In this document: positions 49,839-64,000 of the stretch, piece after piece
Numbering within the stretch: the stretch's first letter is position 1
Layout of the letters: every line of letters begins with the position of its first letter
From: a virus
Length of the DNA: 64,000 nucleotides
Strand: one strand, 5' to 3'
Virus record (IMG/VR): IMGVR_UViG_3300011335_000809
Coordinates: 1-64,000 of that record
The notes under the pieces: generated by a model
Seen by the model: the letters and a program-made list of their open reading frames with translations, nothing else
Told to the model about the DNA's origin: nothing
Database searches by the model: none
Position numbers and translations under genes: made by a program

Positions 49839-51170
49839 TTATCCAAATACTTTATATTTCTCAGAATTAAAAATGTGAGTCTCATATCCTATCACATATT
49901 CACTATAGTGGTTTAACCATCGATGATATCCTTTACCTATCCATAGTTCACACGCCATACGATGGTCTGACATATCTCCATTATACATCGTATCCACAAA
50001 AGTCAAAGATAAATTTGGCAATCGGTTTATATATTCACAATCACTCCACCAAAAGTTTCCGGAATAATAATTTCTATATTCCTTTTGTGGACTAACATAA
50101 TGTGTAACATACAATCCACCCACGACATCATAATTTTTATTCTTTAATGCGTCAACAGATTTTTGCCAATTATCTATATTTAGATATTCTAAACAATCAC
50201 GCCAAGACTTTAAAGAATCAGTTTGTATTACTTTAGATGTTCCTTTTGAGTGATAATATAAAACACATCCATTAGGATTTAGCTTGCAGTAATTCTGCAA
50301 ATTAATTAATGTATTATACTCAAATTTATTTGTGGTATAACGAACAACTTTTACTTTTATATCTTTATCATAAGAATCCACAATCTTAAGAAAGTTATAA
50401 TACTCTTCATCTGATTCTGAATATACACCACAAAAATAATGATCGCACCTATTGTATAATCCAGAGTTTACCACTCTTTCAAATTGATTCTTTATTATAG
50501 ACACCCAATCATTTTTAAGATAATTATGTGAAAATATTGACACAGGATAATTTTTAACTATTCCAATTCCACCCCAAGATTCATATCTTTGGTTCTTCAT
50601 AATCGAATGAAATAAATTATCAGTGGAATAATCGTTCGTAGCTTTATCCGATATAAATTCGTAACTGTCTATATATTGAGTTTTGATCTCATTCCAAAAC
50701 TTGCTCACCAAAATATTGTTACCTTCATTTTCAGGACTTGATACAACATCATGAAATCCCAAATAACCATCTGAATTTAATAATTGTTTAAACTTTAAAT
50801 AATCAGACTTTACACCATCGTATGAATGATCGCCGTCTATAAAAATAAAATCAAACTTAATATTAAGAGATTTTAAATAATTGATTGTATCATTGTTAGT
50901 GGAATCTGAAATTATATATTCGTAGTTTGAATACTTGCTTTTGAGTAAATCAAAATTAGTATTATGCTTTATATCAATCGTTATAACTTTATCAAACAGT
51001 TCACACAATCCAGCTGCAAAACCTCCATAATTAGATCCTATCTCCAACGCGATTCTTTTTTTGGCGTTTGCATTTAAAAAATCCAATAAAGCTTTGAATT
51101 CTTCGGGTTTTTGTTCAATGTTAAATTGTAAACAAGAATCCCATATATTTGGAAAATTATAACCATTCAT
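49839..51170 (-). CDS. Class I SAM methyltransferase (Methyltransf_24-like) fused to glycosyltransferase-like domain
   Basis: LEIGSNYGG, DFIFIDGDHSYDGV, FHD; C-term LYYHSKG...YSGNFWW. Confidence 0.75.
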   Translation of the reverse strand: MNGYNFPNIWDSCLQFNIEQKPEEFKALLDFLNANAKKRIALEIGSNYGGFAAGLCELFDKVITIDIKHNTNFDLLKSKYSNYEYIISDSTNNDTINYLKSLNIKFDFIFIDGDHSYDGVKSDYLKFKQLLNSDGYLGFHDVVSSPENEGNNILVSKFWNEIKTQYIDSYEFISDKATNDYSTDNLFHSIMKNQRYESWGGIGIVKNYPVSIFSHNYLKNDWVSIIKNQFERVVNSGLYNRCDHYFCGVYSESDEEYYNFLKIVDSYDKDIKVKVVRYTTNKFEYNTLINLQNYCKLNPNGCVLYYHSKGTSKVIQTDSLKSWRDCLEYLNIDNWQKSVDALKNKNYDVVGGLYVTHYVSPQKEYRNYYSGNFWWSDCEYINRLPNLSLTFVDTMYNGDMSDHRMACELWIGKGYHRWLNHYSEYVIGYETHIFNSEKYKVFG

Positions 51171-51177
51171 AATAATT

Positions 51178-51251
51178 TGGAGCGGGTAGAGGGAATCGAA
51201 CCCTCACATCAACCTTGGCAAGGTCGAAGGCTACCACTACATCATACCCGC
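51178..51251 (-). tRNA. tRNA-Gly(GCC)
   Basis: Cloverleaf, loop UUGCCAA, CCA end. Confidence 0.95.
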
Positions 51252-59087: not shown

Positions 59088-59164
59088 TGGCGCACCCGGA
59101 GGGACTCTAACCCCCAACCTTTCCGGTAGAAACGGATGGCTCTATACAATTGAGCTACGAGTGC
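59088..59164 (-). tRNA. tRNA-Arg(UCU)
   Basis: Loop UUUCUAC, CCA. Confidence 0.9.
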
Positions 59165-59241
59165 GTTAAAATGGTTAGTAACTGTTCTCACCAGTGATCA
59201 CTGAGTAAAAGGAATTGAACCCAACAATTACTAACAAAAAA

Positions 59242-59319
59242 TGGTTGTCCCGATTGGATTTGAACCAACGACCTTTGTGTTATCAACACACTGCTCTAAA
59301 CCAACTGAGCTACGGGACA
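59242..59319 (-). tRNA. tRNA-Ile(GAU)
   Basis: Loop UUGAUAA, CCA. Confidence 0.93.
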
Positions 59320-59375
59320 ATTGAAAAATAATAATTTTGGCGATATTAAACATTCTCGTTCATATTTATAATTGT

Positions 59376-60221
59376 ATGAAGAATATAACACCCACAGATA
59401 AAATTGTCAACTTAAAAAGTAGAGATCCAATTGAACTTGAATGTTACGAATGTAAATCAACTTATCAACACGCAAAACATCGTTATTTATGTTATAAACT
59501 TAAAGGAAAATTATCAGGATGTTTTTGCACACAAAAGTGTGCTATGACATACAAAAGTAAATTAAAAAATATAAATACTAACTGTGAATATTGTAAAAAA
59601 GATATTACTAAAAGTTTGAATCAATATAAAAAATCTAAATTGCATTTTTGCTCAACTTCTTGTTCCGCAACACATTGGAATAAAATTCACCATCCTATTA
59701 GGATAACAAAATCAAAAAGAACGGTAAAACTACCTATATTATTAACTTGTACAAATTGTTTAAATCAACATTATAGAAAATATTATAAATCAAGTAAAAG
59801 TGGTACCAATTTTTGTACTAGATCTTGTCAATCAATTTATGCAAATAAGACTTGGAATAAGTCTTCTAGGTTTGGAATAAATAAAAGTCGTTGTGAAACT
59901 ATATTAAAAAATATTATTTTAAATGAATTTCCAAATTTACAAATTATTGAAAATGATAGAACTACAATTAAAGGCGGATTAGAAATAGATTTACACATAC
60001 CAAGCAAAAATGTTGCAATTGAATTAAATGGTCCCTGTCATTATATTCCTATATTTGGTACAAAAGAACTAGAAAAAACACAAAATAAAGATTTATTAAA
60101 AATTGAATATTGTCAAAATAATAACATTAAACTTTTCGTAGTTAATGTGATGGGATTAAAAAATCAAATACAAACATTAACTGATGTATTTAATACTACA
60201 CTAAAATCACATTTAGTGTGA
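59376..60221 (+). CDS. Free-standing homing-endonuclease-like protein (zinc-finger repeats + Vsr/DUF559-like nuclease)
   Basis: CxxC...FC(T/S)xxC repeats; SRCE...LEIDLHIPSKNVAIELNGPCHY...D..K; antisense to tRNA array. Confidence 0.75.
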   Translation: MKNITPTDKIVNLKSRDPIELECYECKSTYQHAKHRYLCYKLKGKLSGCFCTQKCAMTYKSKLKNINTNCEYCKKDITKSLNQYKKSKLHFCSTSCSATHWNKIHHPIRITKSKRTVKLPILLTCTNCLNQHYRKYYKSSKSGTNFCTRSCQSIYANKTWNKSSRFGINKSRCETILKNIILNEFPNLQIIENDRTTIKGGLEIDLHIPSKNVAIELNGPCHYIPIFGTKELEKTQNKDLLKIEYCQNNNIKLFVVNVMGLKNQIQTLTDVFNTTLKSHLV

Positions 60222-60224
60222 AAG

Positions 60225-60296
60225 CCCTCCATACGAGACTCGCACTCGTTACTACATCGTGACAGGATGTTATGATAACTCATTCAACAATGGAAG
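60225..60296 (-). tRNA. tRNA-Asp(GUC), CCA not encoded
   Basis: Stem ACAUC/GAUGU, loop CUGUCAC, G73. Confidence 0.85.
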
Positions 60297-60460
60297 AAAA
60301 ATAAATTGGTGCTGTGCTCTCCACGCCGTCTCTGTGTTTTACCGAATGTACCGGTCGGCAGTCACTTATGGGGTCAGTTACCCATTACTAAATTGGCAGT
60401 TAGTTTAATGTGTCTTTACAGAAAAGATTTAACTACTAACTGTTCAGTGTTAGCTGAAGA

Positions 60461-60538
60461 TGGTGGATGCGGTGGGATTTGAACCCACAACCTTTCGGGT
60501 AAGAGCCGAATACTCTGATCCAGTTGAGTTACACATCC
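60461..60538 (-). tRNA. tRNA-Lys(CUU)
   Basis: Loop CUCUUAC, CCA. Confidence 0.93.
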
Positions 60539-60577
60539 ATAAAAAATTGTATCTAATATTGTCAACGAACTATAATC

Positions 60578-60605
60578 ATCTTACCACACTTTATTCTTCC
60601 GTCAA
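60578..60605 (-). promoter_or_regulatory. Internal sigma70-type promoter in tRNA array 2
   Basis: TTGACG-16-TAAGAT with TG extension. Confidence 0.65.
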
Positions 60606-60765
60606 CAACTTTCTTAAAAAATATTCTGAACAAATCAACTTTATTTGAGTGGTAGCTGCACCCACTCTCCGTATTCCCAAATTAACCGTCTGGCCACATT
60701 CAAGGGCTTTCACTTGGATAGTTGATACCGGAGTATAGTGTTGTCTTCACCTAGTTCAGAAAAAA

Positions 60766-60883
60766 TGGTGGGCTACGACTGGACTTTCACCAGTAAACGA
60801 TACAACCTTTCACTCAGGAACATACCCTCCTTCGGTTATATCAGCGGAGTCATCGCCGTGTCTTATATTTCCACCACACGCCC
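60766..60883 (-). ncRNA. 118-nt tRNA-like RNA with branched insert in anticodon arm
   Basis: GGGC/GCCC-A-CCA acceptor, D-arm, GCGAU/AUCGU stem enclosing two hairpins, T-arm ACUGG/CCAGU. Confidence 0.7.
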
Positions 60884-60892
60884 ATAAAAAAA

Positions 60893-61150
60893 TCTTAATG
60901 TCGCTCACGTACTGCGACTCTCACGGCCTCATAATGCGATGTGCGGGTGGCCGTTGTGCATTCAAACAAATCTACCTCGCCTACTTTTTACGATATTGAA
61001 CTGATTTAGCGACTGTTGTACCTGTTCGGCCCTTCCACCGACTCACGTTTTTTATGGTTGCCCATCGCATTGTTATACAACAGTTTTATTTTCAGCGTTT
61101 ACGTATATCCTTAGTTATCTTGATATGTTTCGTATATACACCAATTAAGA
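60893..61150 (-). ncRNA. ~260-nt structured ncRNA candidate with long-range pseudoknot
   Basis: Closing helix plus several 6-9 bp helices; GC-richer than flanks; between tRNA genes. Confidence 0.6.
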
Positions 61151-61154
61151 AAAA

Positions 61155-61230
61155 TGGTCCCAGTTGTTGGTTCCGCCCCAACCTCTATTCGTCTTCAGCG
61201 AATCGCTTTCACTAGGTTAGCTTAACTGGG
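61155..61230 (-). tRNA. tRNA-Phe(GAA)
   Basis: Stem AUUCG/CGAAU, loop CUGAAGA, CCA. Confidence 0.88.
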
Positions 61231-61243
61231 ATTATAAATTAAA

Positions 61244-61323
61244 TTGACAAGTCAAAGGAATCGAACCTTTTCGGCACAGCATCACTGCACCTTTACCACG
61301 CCCTGCGCACTAGCACCTGTCAA
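61244..61323 (-). ncRNA. Aberrant tRNA-like RNA or pseudo-tRNA
   Basis: UGACAGGU/ACUUGUCA stem, perfect T-arm AAAGG-UUCGAUU-CCUUU, non-canonical middle, no CCA. Confidence 0.5.
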
Positions 61324-61329
61324 AATCAC

Positions 61330-61477
61330 GATGTATGGTTGGATTCGAACCAACGGCTACTTTTACAACCATTAACATATAATTAATGGAATTTTTATTT
61401 ATTACAACCTAACATAAGATTTTTACGGGCTTACCCCATAGTTAGGTACTCTGCTCTGCCAACTGAGCTACATACAA
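61330..61477 (-). ncRNA. ~148-nt tRNA-like RNA with two-hairpin insert
   Basis: Canonical UAGCUCAGUUGGCAGAGC D-arm and GUUGG-UUCGAAU-CCAAC T-arm; UGUAUG/CAUACA acceptor. Confidence 0.7.
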
Positions 61478-61486
61478 TGTTTAAAA

Positions 61487-61572
61487 TGGTGGGGTATGTA
61501 GGTAATGCGCCTACCGAGCCTTTCAGCGCCAGATTTACAGTCTGGACCATCTCTTTAATGGTATAATACCCC
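61487..61572 (-). tRNA. tRNA-Tyr(GUA)
   Basis: Loop CUGUAAA, long variable arm, CCA. Confidence 0.9.
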
Positions 61573-61703
61573 GAAAAATTTAACGTCATATGTTTGTTTC
61601 ACCATATGACGGTGACTGAGGTTCTTCTTTCACCGTTACGTTCTAGTTATCCTCACCTATGCACAGGTAGAACGGCATTAGTCACTTCAGAAGACTTATA
61701 AAA

Positions 61704-61779
61704 TGGCTCCAAGAGAGGGCAACGATCCCCCAACCTTTCGGGTAACAACCGAATGCTCTACCAATTGAGCTATCTTGGA
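61704..61779 (-). tRNA. tRNA-Asn(GUU)
   Basis: Loop UUGUUAC, G73, CCA. Confidence 0.93.
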
Positions 61780-61801
61780 ATTAAAAATTAAAAATGTTTA
61801 C

Positions 61802-61970
61802 TGGATTTCAACGAACGTTCCATCTACTAATCATAACCTCGTCAGATTATAACATTCAATGTCTATCAGTGTCAATACATTACTTACTACTTCAACTATT
61901 GATTCAGATTCGAACTGAATTACTCCCGCTTATTCGTGCGGTTGTTTTACCAATTAAACTACGTTCGTTG
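61802..61970 (-). ncRNA. tRNA-like RNA with ~80-nt insert between T-arm and 3' acceptor strand
   Basis: CAACGAACG/CGUUCGUUG 9-bp helix, canonical D and T arms, 8-nt anticodon-like loop. Confidence 0.7.
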
Positions 61971-61995
61971 CCTTCACCTAATGTATTTGAAAAAA

Positions 61996-62070
61996 TGGCA
62001 AAGTGGGTGGGTAACGCTCCCACATAAAGCAGTTTTGGAGACTGCTGCATTTCTTGTCTGCCACCACCTT
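61996..62070 (-). tRNA. tRNA-Trp(CCA)
   Basis: Loop CUCCAAA, G73, CCA. Confidence 0.9.
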
Positions 62071-62129
62071 GTTAAAATGGTATCTCCACCGTTAATATTT
62101 CAGTGGCCGTACCTGTTACTCTCTGTAAA

Positions 62130-63200
62130 TTACGAAATTAATGTTGTTGATTCAGATTTTTTCTTTGCTTCTCTAACAGAGACATAATTGATGGTATTTT
62201 CAATTGAAATACCCACTTGTTCCGAAAGACGCAATCCACGATAATATTTTGTAGGAATTCCAACATACTCACTCATAGCTATTTCTTTACGTGTATCCTT
62301 GATAAATTTCATATTTTGAATTGGATACAAATTGTTATATCCAATTGAAGTTAGAATTCCATTACCAAATAAGTTCATATGATAATCCGTAATTACATTG
62401 TAATATTTAACTTCTTCCATCACTACACTCTTTTTTATCAAGATTATTTCTTCACCTTTTACATTAAATGTAATAGTGCCAATCGGTGTATCACTTGTCA
62501 TCGGATAAGTAAATTTACCAGCCTGTTTATTAAAAATACGATGTTGTACAATTGTCTTTAAATAAGAACCATCACTAAATTCCAATAGATTGTATTTGGT
62601 TGTTACTTCTGGCTGCTTTATATACAAAGGTTTTGCCGTATCAAACTTCGCTTCGTCAAAATTCCACACAATAATATCGTCGATATAATCAATGTCTTCA
62701 ATTGCTTTGGTTGTACCATCTGACAATGATACCAAAGTGCCTTCTGCTAAACACACAGAAACATATATCGATATATCTGTACCATATGCTGTTCCATTAA
62801 CATTTGTTGCAAATGCTCTAATATAGACTAGACCATTTGTTGGGCTTATGTTCTGATTGCTACACGAAAATGATCCAATTGAAGCCGTAGGATCCACATA
62901 AGCGGAATCTGTTGGAAGTGTTGGGTTTGGAGAATTGCTTGCTACGAATCCTCTAGATAATATCGGTGAATTTCCATCAGATACTACTGTTCCTACGGCG
63001 CTAAAGTCGTAAAAAGCGCCGCCACTAGCACTATCTGTGGTCACGACTGGCAGTAGCGCCTGTAACGCCGATTCTTCTTGTTGTGCACCACCTGCAATTT
63101 GTTCTTCATATCCTCGCATCATTTTGGAATAATTTTGCATTATTTCGTGTAAGGGTAACTTTTCTTTGTTCTGTTGATAATAAGTCTGCCAATGTATCAT
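62130..63200 (-). CDS. Fn3/Ig-like domain + Hint (intein-like) domain protein
   Basis: YIRAFATNVNGTAYG; CLAEGTLVSLSDG..KAIEDI (block A), TIVQHRI (block B), YYNV...LFGNGILTS (F/G without HN). Confidence 0.8.
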   Translation of the reverse strand: MIHWQTYYQQNKEKLPLHEIMQNYSKMMRGYEEQIAGGAQQEESALQALLPVVTTDSASGGAFYDFSAVGTVVSDGNSPILSRGFVASNSPNPTLPTDSAYVDPTASIGSFSCSNQNISPTNGLVYIRAFATNVNGTAYGTDISIYVSVCLAEGTLVSLSDGTTKAIEDIDYIDDIIVWNFDEAKFDTAKPLYIKQPEVTTKYNLLEFSDGSYLKTIVQHRIFNKQAGKFTYPMTSDTPIGTITFNVKGEEIILIKKSVVMEEVKYYNVITDYHMNLFGNGILTSIGYNNLYPIQNMKFIKDTRKEIAMSEYVGIPTKYYRGLRLSEQVGISIENTINYVSVREAKKKSESTTLIS

Positions 63201-63230
63201 ACATATATATATCCACCAACAATACTAAAA

Positions 63231-63305
63231 TGGTAGCCTATGCCGGTGCTGCCCCGGCTACTCTTGGATGAAAGCCAAGTGACTTAGCTGGTTGTCGAAT
63301 AGGCC
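63231..63305 (-). tRNA. tRNA-Glu(UUC)
   Basis: Loop CUUUCAU, CCA. Confidence 0.9.
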
Positions 63306-63312
63306 ATTAAAT

Positions 63313-63390
63313 TGGTGCTTCAGTGAGGATTCGAACCCCAAACTCAATGTCCGTAGCATTGCGTGATATATCCATTTTCACCACTGAAGC
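63313..63390 (-). tRNA. tRNA-Arg(ACG)
   Basis: Loop CUACGGA, CCA. Confidence 0.93.
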
Positions 63391-63396
63391 ATAAAT

Positions 63397-63472
63397 TGGG
63401 GTGATATACGAGTGCTGCCCTCGTTCCGTGAGTTTCACAAACTCAAATGCTAACTGTTACACCAATATCACC
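63397..63472 (-). tRNA. tRNA-His(GUG)
   Basis: G-1:C73, loop UUGUGAA, CCA. Confidence 0.92.
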
Positions 63473-63484
63473 ATTACTATAAAT

Positions 63485-63560
63485 TGGAGCCGAAGACAGG
63501 ACTTGAACCTGCAACCTGAACTTTACAAAAGTCCTGCTCTGCCAATTGAGCTACTTCGGC
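63485..63560 (-). tRNA. tRNA-Thr(UGU)
   Basis: Loop UUUGUAA, CCA. Confidence 0.95.
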
Positions 63561-63610
63561 GGTCTAAATTTTCTTTGCTTATTTACTTATAACAATAACC
63601 TCAGTTATGT

Positions 63611-63742
63611 TATTATCGCCCTATAGGTTCTGTATTTCAGCATAACACCTACGGACCAATCAATTGATTTTCCCAGTTCTCACCTTATCATCGGTCTTTC
63701 CGACTCACTGGCGGAGGCTCAACAGATGGAGTTTCAAGCCCT
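63611..63742 (-). ncRNA. Conserved two-hairpin leader element of tRNA array 2
   Basis: Second copy of the 53576-53672 motif. Confidence 0.7.
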
Positions 63743-63758
63743 TCCTTTATCTTCTATC

Positions 63759-63876
63759 AGTCTATCATAACTTTCGTCATTGTCAACCGACTTTTAAAAT
63801 TTCTTTTTCATCATCCAATGAACTACTACCTTCGTTCACTGTTTAACTACTTTACCACACCTTCAAAGAACGTCAA
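63759..63876 (-). promoter_or_regulatory. Tandem sigma70-type promoters of tRNA array 2
   Basis: TTGACG-16-TAAAGT (63876-63849) and TTGACA-16-TAGACT (63786-63759), both with TG extension. Confidence 0.75.
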
Positions 63877-63886
63877 CCACAAAAAT

Positions 63887-63917
63887 AAAAAAACCGTCAC
63901 TTTTTAGTGTGACGGTT
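63887..63917 (-). terminator. Attenuator terminator 2
   Basis: AACCGUCAC/GUGACGGUU + U-tract; 5' arm alternatively pairs with 63953-63967. Confidence 0.8.
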
Positions 63918-63948
63918 GATATTGTTTTGAAGTTACCTAAGTTTGAGT

Positions 63949-63999
63949 CTATACAATATCACCGCCAACACATTCACAATTCGTAAATGTATCCCAACG
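63949..63999 (-). CDS. 3' part of putative leader peptide ...RWDTFTNCECVGGDIV* (start outside window)
   Basis: Hand translation; last codons form the antiterminator 5' arm; frame inferred. Confidence 0.55.
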   Translation of the reverse strand, partial: RWDTFTNCECVGGDIV

Positions 64000-64000
64000 T

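Follow-up and report, generated by a model that had tools for sequence, protein, structure and literature searches.

A feature at the edge of the stretch of phage DNA analysed here, a short minus-strand reading frame followed by an intrinsic terminator (module 2), probably constitutes a working leader-peptide transcription attenuator that gates read-through into a large tRNA array (array 2); from comparative sequence analysis and in silico folding, we put the probability of this reading at about 0.6. The window, by which we mean the whole stretch of DNA analysed, comprises the first 64 kb of a 115.6-kb IMG/VR record with a G+C content of 33%. The record is rated as 34% complete by CheckV and is thus a fragment of a phage of roughly 300 kb. 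The source is a giant tailed phage from a lake. Neighbouring genes encode baseplate and tail-fibre proteins, and comparison of one baseplate protein places Microcystis phage Mel-JY01 nearest among isolates (41% identity), with the Flavobacterium phage immuto group at 36%. These carry only one and three tRNA genes, respectively, and therefore provide no cultured model. The window contains two tRNA arrays, both on the minus strand. The principal features of module 2 and the array that it precedes are as follows.

63949–64000, minus strand: leader ORF 2, codons 10–26 including the TAG stop, from the sequence and the frame read; the ATG lies outside the window.
63967–63993, minus strand: hairpin P, a candidate pause hairpin inside the ORF, 11 bp, −9.8 kcal/mol, from the predicted fold and covariation.
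63953–63966, minus strand: region 2, the antiterminator 5′ strand, codons 21–25, from the fold and nucleotide conservation.
63911–63925, minus strand: region 3, the antiterminator 3′ strand, overlapping the terminator 5′ arm, from the fold and pair counts.
63880–63917, minus strand: intrinsic terminator with a 9-bp GC-rich stem, an 8-nt loop and a T-run, from a terminator scan and the fold.
57376–63560, minus strand: tRNA array 2 (Thr, His, Arg, Glu, Trp, Asn, Ile, Phe, Lys, Asp, Ile, Arg, Tyr-like, Cys), from ARAGORN, Rfam and relatives.

Leader ORF 2 encodes MRVQYTHIKRWDTFTNCECVGGDIV (25 sense codons) and starts with an ATG that is not preceded by a Shine–Dalgarno sequence. Re-reading of the minus-strand frame from 63999 gave R W D T F T N C E C V G G D I V and a stop, as in the original prediction, which was made from the letters of the window and also anticipated an in-frame ATG within 5–25 codons, additional codons drawn from the H, Y, K, I, R, T set and a TATATAT-like box upstream. 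The part beyond base 64000 was read from L001, an own-genome locus that extends past the window, and bears out these expectations. The ATG is located 9 codons upstream of the window edge, at genome coordinate 64026 (L001 1827), which extends the peptide by M R V Q Y T H I K, and an AT-rich box, TATATATT, ends 6 nt 5′ of the ATG. The frame has a start and is closed upstream and so is not the tail of a long CDS. The lack of a Shine–Dalgarno sequence is shared with the rest of the record, as no such signal was detected upstream of its 131 larger ORFs, where the share of G is 6–15% over positions −12 to −2, with an excess of A at −3, −5, −6, −11 and −14. A Shine–Dalgarno-free, A-enriched start context of the type described for Bacteroidota and some cyanobacteria resembles that of this phage. 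Pfam returned no match for the two ORFs located upstream of leader 2.

The site 5′ of leader ORF 2 is conserved, with an AT-rich hexamer ending 7–13 nt before the ATG in 36 of 36 module-2 versions and a TTGAYD −35-like hexamer in 26 of 36. From this conservation we infer that the site is used as a promoter. It was not among the hits listed by a consensus promoter scan, and the promoter-like hits across the region (15, compared with 16.6 in shuffles) were not above chance. The idea that TATATATT marks a widespread phage promoter class was rejected as unsupported: the genome contains 30 copies versus ∼37 expected from base composition, and the box occurs within 40 nt upstream of two of the 131 larger ORFs. 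Transcription would start at the conserved promoter-like site, and, since its AT-rich box ends 6–8 nt before the ATG, the message seems to be leaderless or nearly so, which would fit the invariant ATG. Translation of such a near-leaderless message without a Shine–Dalgarno sequence is assumed in what follows.

Hairpin P begins at the third position of the Trp codon and reaches codon 20. Region 2 follows directly and mimics the 3′ arm of the terminator, the stem arms of which are AACCGTCAC and GTGACGGTT (hairpin part 63892–63917). RNAfold pairs regions 2 and 3 through 14 bp with one bulged A, and a fifteenth U–A pair is possible, in agreement with the 15-bp antiterminator that had been proposed to capture the terminator 5′ arm. 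The calculated stability of the antiterminator is −17.4 kcal/mol versus −13.8 kcal/mol for the terminator. In the fold of the full-length leader, region 2 is instead paired with early codons (region 1) and the terminator is formed, with a total of −39.2 kcal/mol; the whole-leader fold energy corresponds to a z score of −4.3, and none of 200 shuffles was as good. Terminators of this family are found at only two sites in the 115-kb record, both beside tRNA arrays.

The effect of a translating ribosome was modelled by hiding a 28-nt footprint around each A-site codon and folding the transcript up to the terminator loop. In these in silico calculations, A-site positions at codons 2–17 give the antiterminator as the best fold and positions at codons 18–26 abolish it, a pattern that recurs in most relatives. 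The predicted outcome is the logic of classical attenuation and is consistent with the earlier suggestion that a ribosome at the stop would favour termination. In the mechanism that we propose, the hairpin within the ORF may hold the polymerase until the ribosome arrives. A free-running ribosome at the stop would mask region 2, so that the terminator would form and the transcript would end ∼135 nt from its start. A ribosome stalled on any of codons 2–17 would leave region 2 free to pair with the terminator 5′ arm, and the polymerase would enter the tRNA genes. As codons for 11 of the 12 array-2 amino acids lie within codons 2–17, a shortage of any of those charged tRNAs should raise array-2 transcription.

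Relatives were collected by scanning viral and metagenome contigs for a shared 21-mer, the leader and the terminator pattern and were filtered for the RNA element that lies downstream. This yielded 59 module-2 loci, corresponding to 37 distinct versions and ∼13 peptide types. All of these loci retain the antiterminator strand as well as an inner hairpin whose stem shows compensatory changes, and all have the terminator, with tRNA-Thr behind it. On average, pairs of versions are 84% identical in the ORF, 89% in region 2 and 97% in region 3, compared with 47% across the spacer and 64% in the loop of the terminator; part of regions 3 and 4 was fixed by the search pattern itself. The stem of hairpin P has at least five different sequences among the relatives. 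No match to the module was returned by blastn among 50,697 deposited phage genomes. A weak model hit that suggested a third leader (L007, 5169–5302) was rejected, as an ordinary gene ends there with a similar terminator.

Support for the predicted helices was assessed by counting paired cells in alignments. RNAalifold applied to a plain MAFFT alignment recovered the terminator alone, as the ORF is misaligned through indels; we therefore turned to explicit structures and to an alignment fitted to a model. In the plain alignment 91% of cells are paired, compared with at most 52% in slid controls. In the model-fitted alignment (40 distinct rows), hairpin P and the antiterminator together have 90.5% of cells paired versus 25–52% in slid controls, and eight of their pairs are changed on both sides, a number that was reached in none of 500 shuffles. 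Taken separately, hairpin P has 88.9% of cells paired and four of nine counted pairs changed on both sides in this alignment, which is biased towards the modelled hairpin P, and the antiterminator helix, which is outside the model, has 92.3% of cells paired. The region 1:2 helix is less well kept, with 79.5% of cells paired and several columns about half unpaired. The region 2 block G[GA]CGG..GATATTGT is preserved as nucleotides across a frame shift (GGC GGT to GCG GCT) or with a stop (GGC TGA), as expected of an RNA strand that must pair. A distant type (L029) has the peptide MIITRTANKNHYWFNNKTDRSDDC, and the end of its ORF, GAUGACUGUUGA, is complementary to its own terminator arm, UCAACCGUCAU; this type and module 1, the counterpart of module 2 before the other array, build equivalent competing helices of other letters.

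Much of the ORF lies within these predicted helices, and its variable columns (11, 7 and 13 at codon positions 1, 2 and 3, respectively) are weakly coding-like. Both observations would be compatible with an untranslated RNA switch, or with a small RNA ending at the terminator, in which the open frame is a by-product of constraint on the RNA sequence. We regard this explanation as very unlikely. All 37 versions contain an ATG ORF of 23–27 codons without an internal stop, as do all ∼13 peptide types, and this length is retained despite large sequence change; insertions and deletions are frame-preserving multiples of three (two lineages have +6 nt, one has +3). The relatives also show synonymous changes (CGT/CGC, AAA/AAG, ACA/ACG/ACC and GTA/GTT). 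An Rfam E-value search of 50000–64000 returned tRNAs only, plus a sub-threshold hit (30.6 bits versus a gathering score of 55) that is caused by the terminator, so that no Rfam family speaks for this alternative. These features favour a translated leader within an attenuator.

The window holds a second, paralogous unit that precedes array 1, in line with the original prediction of an array-1 architecture replicated with a complementary amino-acid set.

53788–53841, minus strand: leader ORF 1, 17 codons, MNLISQPSQASQLPSGS, a homologous unit, from relatives.
53730–53788, minus strand: module 1 switch, with region 2 at 53776–53788, region 3 at 53750–53762 and the terminator at 53730–53760, from the fold.
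51178–53547, minus strand: tRNA array 1 (Val, Pro, Leu, Ser, Gly, Gln, Ala, Gly), from ARAGORN and relatives.

The order of elements in module 1 is a promoter-like site, ORF 1, a terminator of the module-2 family, a sigma70-like site and a conserved RNA element. Its inner hairpin takes in the stop codon, and region 2 is located directly after the stop. Masking in silico predicts the antiterminator at codons 2–15 of 18. Relatives of module 1 comprise 16 distinct versions with seven distinct 17-codon peptides, plus a fused form in L015 (1–215) and L016. In the latter two, the array-1 leader is joined in frame to an ORF of ∼65 codons with the same promoter-like site upstream, and both retain the tail ..SEPSQASQLPSES, the stop and the switch; the fusion counts against the attenuator reading. 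Within leader 1 (53806–53824), the hexamer AGTCAA, which corresponds to Ser-Gln codons, occurs twice, 9 nt apart, and is readable as a direct repeat.

Among the relatives, ARAGORN reveals a stable division of amino acids between the arrays, with V P L S G Q A in array 1 and T H R E W N Y F K D I C in array 2. Array 1 of the relatives contains two Ser species and two Gly, and array 2 often adds Thr-CGU and Gln-CUG and sometimes Val-UAC. Canonical copies of all 12 array-2 tRNA kinds are present in close relatives (ARAGORN). In array 2 of the present genome, which is interrupted by ORFs, default ARAGORN identifies Thr, Arg-ACG, Trp, Asn, Asp, Ile, Lys and Arg-UCU. Phe and Cys were found by relaxed ARAGORN only, His as an Rfam match only and Glu by eye only; the His, Glu, Phe, Cys and Tyr tRNAs are non-canonical in this genome. 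The array-2 tRNA list given in the original prediction is thus confirmed by default ARAGORN for Thr, Arg-ACG, Trp, Asn and Asp, and its remaining members rest on relaxed settings (Phe and Cys) or visual inspection (Glu).

Array 2 has several unusual components. The tRNA-like genes for Glu (UUC; 63225–63300) and His (GUG; 63400–63471), both on the minus strand and with anticodons read by eye, have a normal acceptor stem, an encoded CCA and an odd T-loop, GGCAGCA, and are missed even by relaxed ARAGORN; the His gene scores 37 bits in Rfam. Relaxed ARAGORN also reports tRNA-like genes with insertions of 54–115 nt at or near the anticodon loop (58886–59081, 61330–61477 and, outside array 2, 51674–51862, all on the minus strand), one of which is Tyr-GUA-like and 196 nt in length. 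In array 2 of the relatives L003, L022, L032, L033, L119, L128 and L148, ARAGORN places a tRNA with the four-base anticodon CUCU in an 8-nt loop at a shared position between His and Arg-ACG. A 356-residue ORF (62130–63200, minus strand) splits the array between Glu and Trp; its middle part is intein- or Hint-like, by eye only, and Pfam gave no match for it.

The codons of each leader match the array that follows. All 12 array-2 amino acids are present in codons 2–19 of leader 2; codons 2–17 include 11 of the 12 at one to three codons each, and the twelfth, Glu, is codon 18. By composition statistics chosen post hoc, after the data had been seen, and replicated in two modules before matching arrays, no 18-residue window of the phage's larger ORFs contains all 12 (0 of 25,043), the probability under independent draws is 1.8e-5, one of the 599 short ORFs (15–35 codons) in the genome holds the full set, and the run of 13 consecutive array-1 residues in leader 1 has a frequency of 7.6e-4 of windows. 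Array-2 amino acids account for 14 of the 16 codons in the sensing window of leader 2, and array-1 amino acids for 12 of 14 in that of leader 1. The two exceptions in leader 2, Val (GUA) and Gln (CAG), have no array-2 tRNA here; some relatives carry Val-UAC and Gln-CUG in array 2. Leader 2 has six array-1-type residues, four of which fall beyond the sensing window, among the final eight codons, whose sequence is dictated by RNA pairing. Leader 2 samples both Arg codon families and both Thr codons, leader 1 samples both Ser families, and substitutions among the relatives are largely within each array's amino-acid set. Neither leader 2 nor its relatives contain tandem runs of a regulatory codon, the one to three codons per amino acid being scattered; this departs from the classical design and, together with the promoter-like sites ahead of the tRNAs, is the main caveat to the attenuator reading. 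No consistent covariation was seen between the leader codons ACC and CAG and the presence of Thr-GGU and Gln-CUG in the array of the same phage. Short ORFs are common in AT-rich DNA, as the 599 in this genome illustrate, and one could adjoin a terminator by chance; in view of ∼60 conserved loci, the structure controls and two matched paralogous modules, we consider this extremely unlikely. Taken together, these sequence comparisons support the interpretation advanced in the original prediction.

Residue order, besides identity, is conserved in leader 2, and this would also fit a peptide-specific role. In the tna operon, termination is Rho-dependent and the Trp-to-stop spacing in TnaC is fixed. 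Module 2 resembles TnaC in having a short leader with a Trp residue, which is essential in TnaC, and in that the position of the ribosome near the stop would decide downstream termination. A TnaC-like arrest-peptide sensor, in which the Trp-containing peptide would stall the ribosome in response to a ligand or general translation stress and not to particular tRNA supply, could account for the conserved order and for the invariant Trp and near-invariant I-[KN]-R and T-x-F of all module-2 peptides. Module 2 differs, however, in its intrinsic terminator, in implying no ligand and in a Trp-to-stop spacing of 11–16 residues among the peptide types. Tunnel-specific arrest at a stop would be intolerant of such variation, so module 2 is not TnaC-like in this respect. 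Leader 1 has no comparable motif, yet shares the same RNA layout, and the use by each leader of its own array's amino-acid set would be left unexplained. An arrest peptide is hence quite unlikely, and sensing of tRNA supply by an attenuator would account for the composition of both leaders.

Between the terminator and the first tRNA, the following features were found.

63849–63876, minus strand: sigma70-like site P2a, TTGACG, 16 nt, TAAAGT, with TG before the latter, from a promoter scan.
63759–63786, minus strand: sigma70-like site P2b, TTGACA, 16 nt, TAGACT, from a promoter scan.
63611–63744, minus strand: conserved structured RNA element before the first tRNA, holding a 21-mer common to array 1, from comparison.

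P2a is homologous to the sigma70-like site after the array-1 terminator, and 29 of 36 versions have at least one sigma70-like site in this interval. These sites, which the original prediction did not weigh, mean that array 2 may be transcribed without passing the attenuator; with such independent transcription, the attenuator may add a conditional share. The structured RNA element, of ∼100–130 nt, lies ahead of both arrays (63611–63744 and 53576–53672, minus strand) and has no Rfam match. The invariant 21-mer common to its two copies recurs in 17 other viral-contig stretches. In L018 the RNA element is present without the leader and terminator, and in L018, L024 and L027 the leader and terminator are paired with a different RNA element.

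RNA-library contigs from two lake metatranscriptome studies, which carry no strand or end information and are possibly carried-over DNA, run from the tRNA side through the promoter-like sites and into or beyond the terminator. They leave most of leader ORF 2 uncovered and have no usable ends. These contigs provide a weak hint in favour of the attenuator.

The promoter-like sites behind the terminator in 29 of 36 versions, together with the conserved sequence and order of the peptide and one RNA-library contig that ends near the start predicted for P2a, might also be expected of an ordinary small peptide gene whose own terminator insulates the tRNA operon. Expression of the operon would then depend on the sigma70-like sites, and pairing of the ORF end with the terminator arm would have no part in regulation. 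This arrangement is unlikely on several grounds. The antiterminator strand is kept at the nucleotide level across frame changes, and in two paralogous modules of different letters; the stop codon is always in or beside this strand. The peptides, of 17–27 residues, match no family, and their amino-acid composition corresponds to the tRNA array downstream. Finally, the module stays before tRNA-Thr even where the intervening RNA element is replaced (L018, L024 and L027). A regulatory pairing, and with it an attenuator, is the reading that we prefer.

Multivalent attenuators are known from enterobacteria, in which the thr leader responds to Thr and Ile and that of ilvGMEDA to Ile, Leu and Val; trpL, hisL, pheL and pheST are further examples of attenuation. 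Module 2 shares with the thr and ilvGMEDA type a short leader ORF (its translation here being presumed) and an intrinsic terminator whose 5′ arm is also used by an antiterminator, the two structures being mutually exclusive. The stop is likewise placed so that a terminating ribosome masks the antiterminator strand, the inner hairpin occupies the position of the pause hairpin and more than one amino acid would be sensed. The two differ in the genes regulated, which are tRNA genes here and biosynthetic or synthetase genes there, so that the products of module 2 would feed back directly on decoding of the leader. They also differ in that ∼12 amino acids are represented here at one to three codons each and not in tandem runs, in the seemingly leaderless message, in the promoter-like sites between attenuator and genes, and in the phage-borne location, where two copies share out the amino acids. 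A T-box recognises a single uncharged tRNA by direct binding, independently of translation, and its targets are synthetase or amino-acid genes. Module 2 would resemble T-boxes in coupling read-through to the charging state of tRNA, but neither a T-box nor any other Rfam family matches it.

Our searches of the literature for leader-peptide or attenuator control of tRNA genes or arrays yielded nothing relevant apart from the Anabaena array papers, and the Anabaena array is the nearest published biology that we found. The trn operon of Anabaena sp. PCC 7120 is a long tRNA array induced by translational stress (PMC8421152), and TrcR, a ribbon-helix-helix repressor, binds direct repeats over its −10 box (PMC10272220). 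The 2021 paper on this operon makes no mention of attenuation, a leader or a terminator (PMC8421152). Both systems involve an accessory tRNA array that is, or in the phage would be, more expressed when translation is impaired; in Anabaena a repressor acts at the promoter, whereas an RNA/ribosome switch, with no repressor site, is proposed here.

By the same mechanism, module 1 would act on array 1 through its Ser, Gln, Pro, Ala, Leu and Gly codons. We tentatively suggest, at somewhat less than even odds, that the two modules form a phage feedback circuit in which each array is gated by a leader that polls nearly every tRNA encoded by it, with the amino acids split over two sensors, so that depletion of any of these tRNAs would turn that array on and a sufficient supply would turn it off. 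As the element is only ∼135 nt in length, it is testable in reporter constructs. Large phage tRNA sets are currently thought to serve in matching codon usage, in replacing degraded host tRNAs or in escape from anticodon nucleases. If the proposed circuit is correct, phage tRNA expression would be demand-driven, with a sensor that reads the decoding speed of the codons served by each array, and depletion through host shut-off or host anticodon nucleases would switch the array on. The leaders would then offer a direct handle for testing tRNA depletion during infection, and attenuation would be extended to tRNA genes themselves, to a roster design of one codon per tRNA and to leaderless messages.
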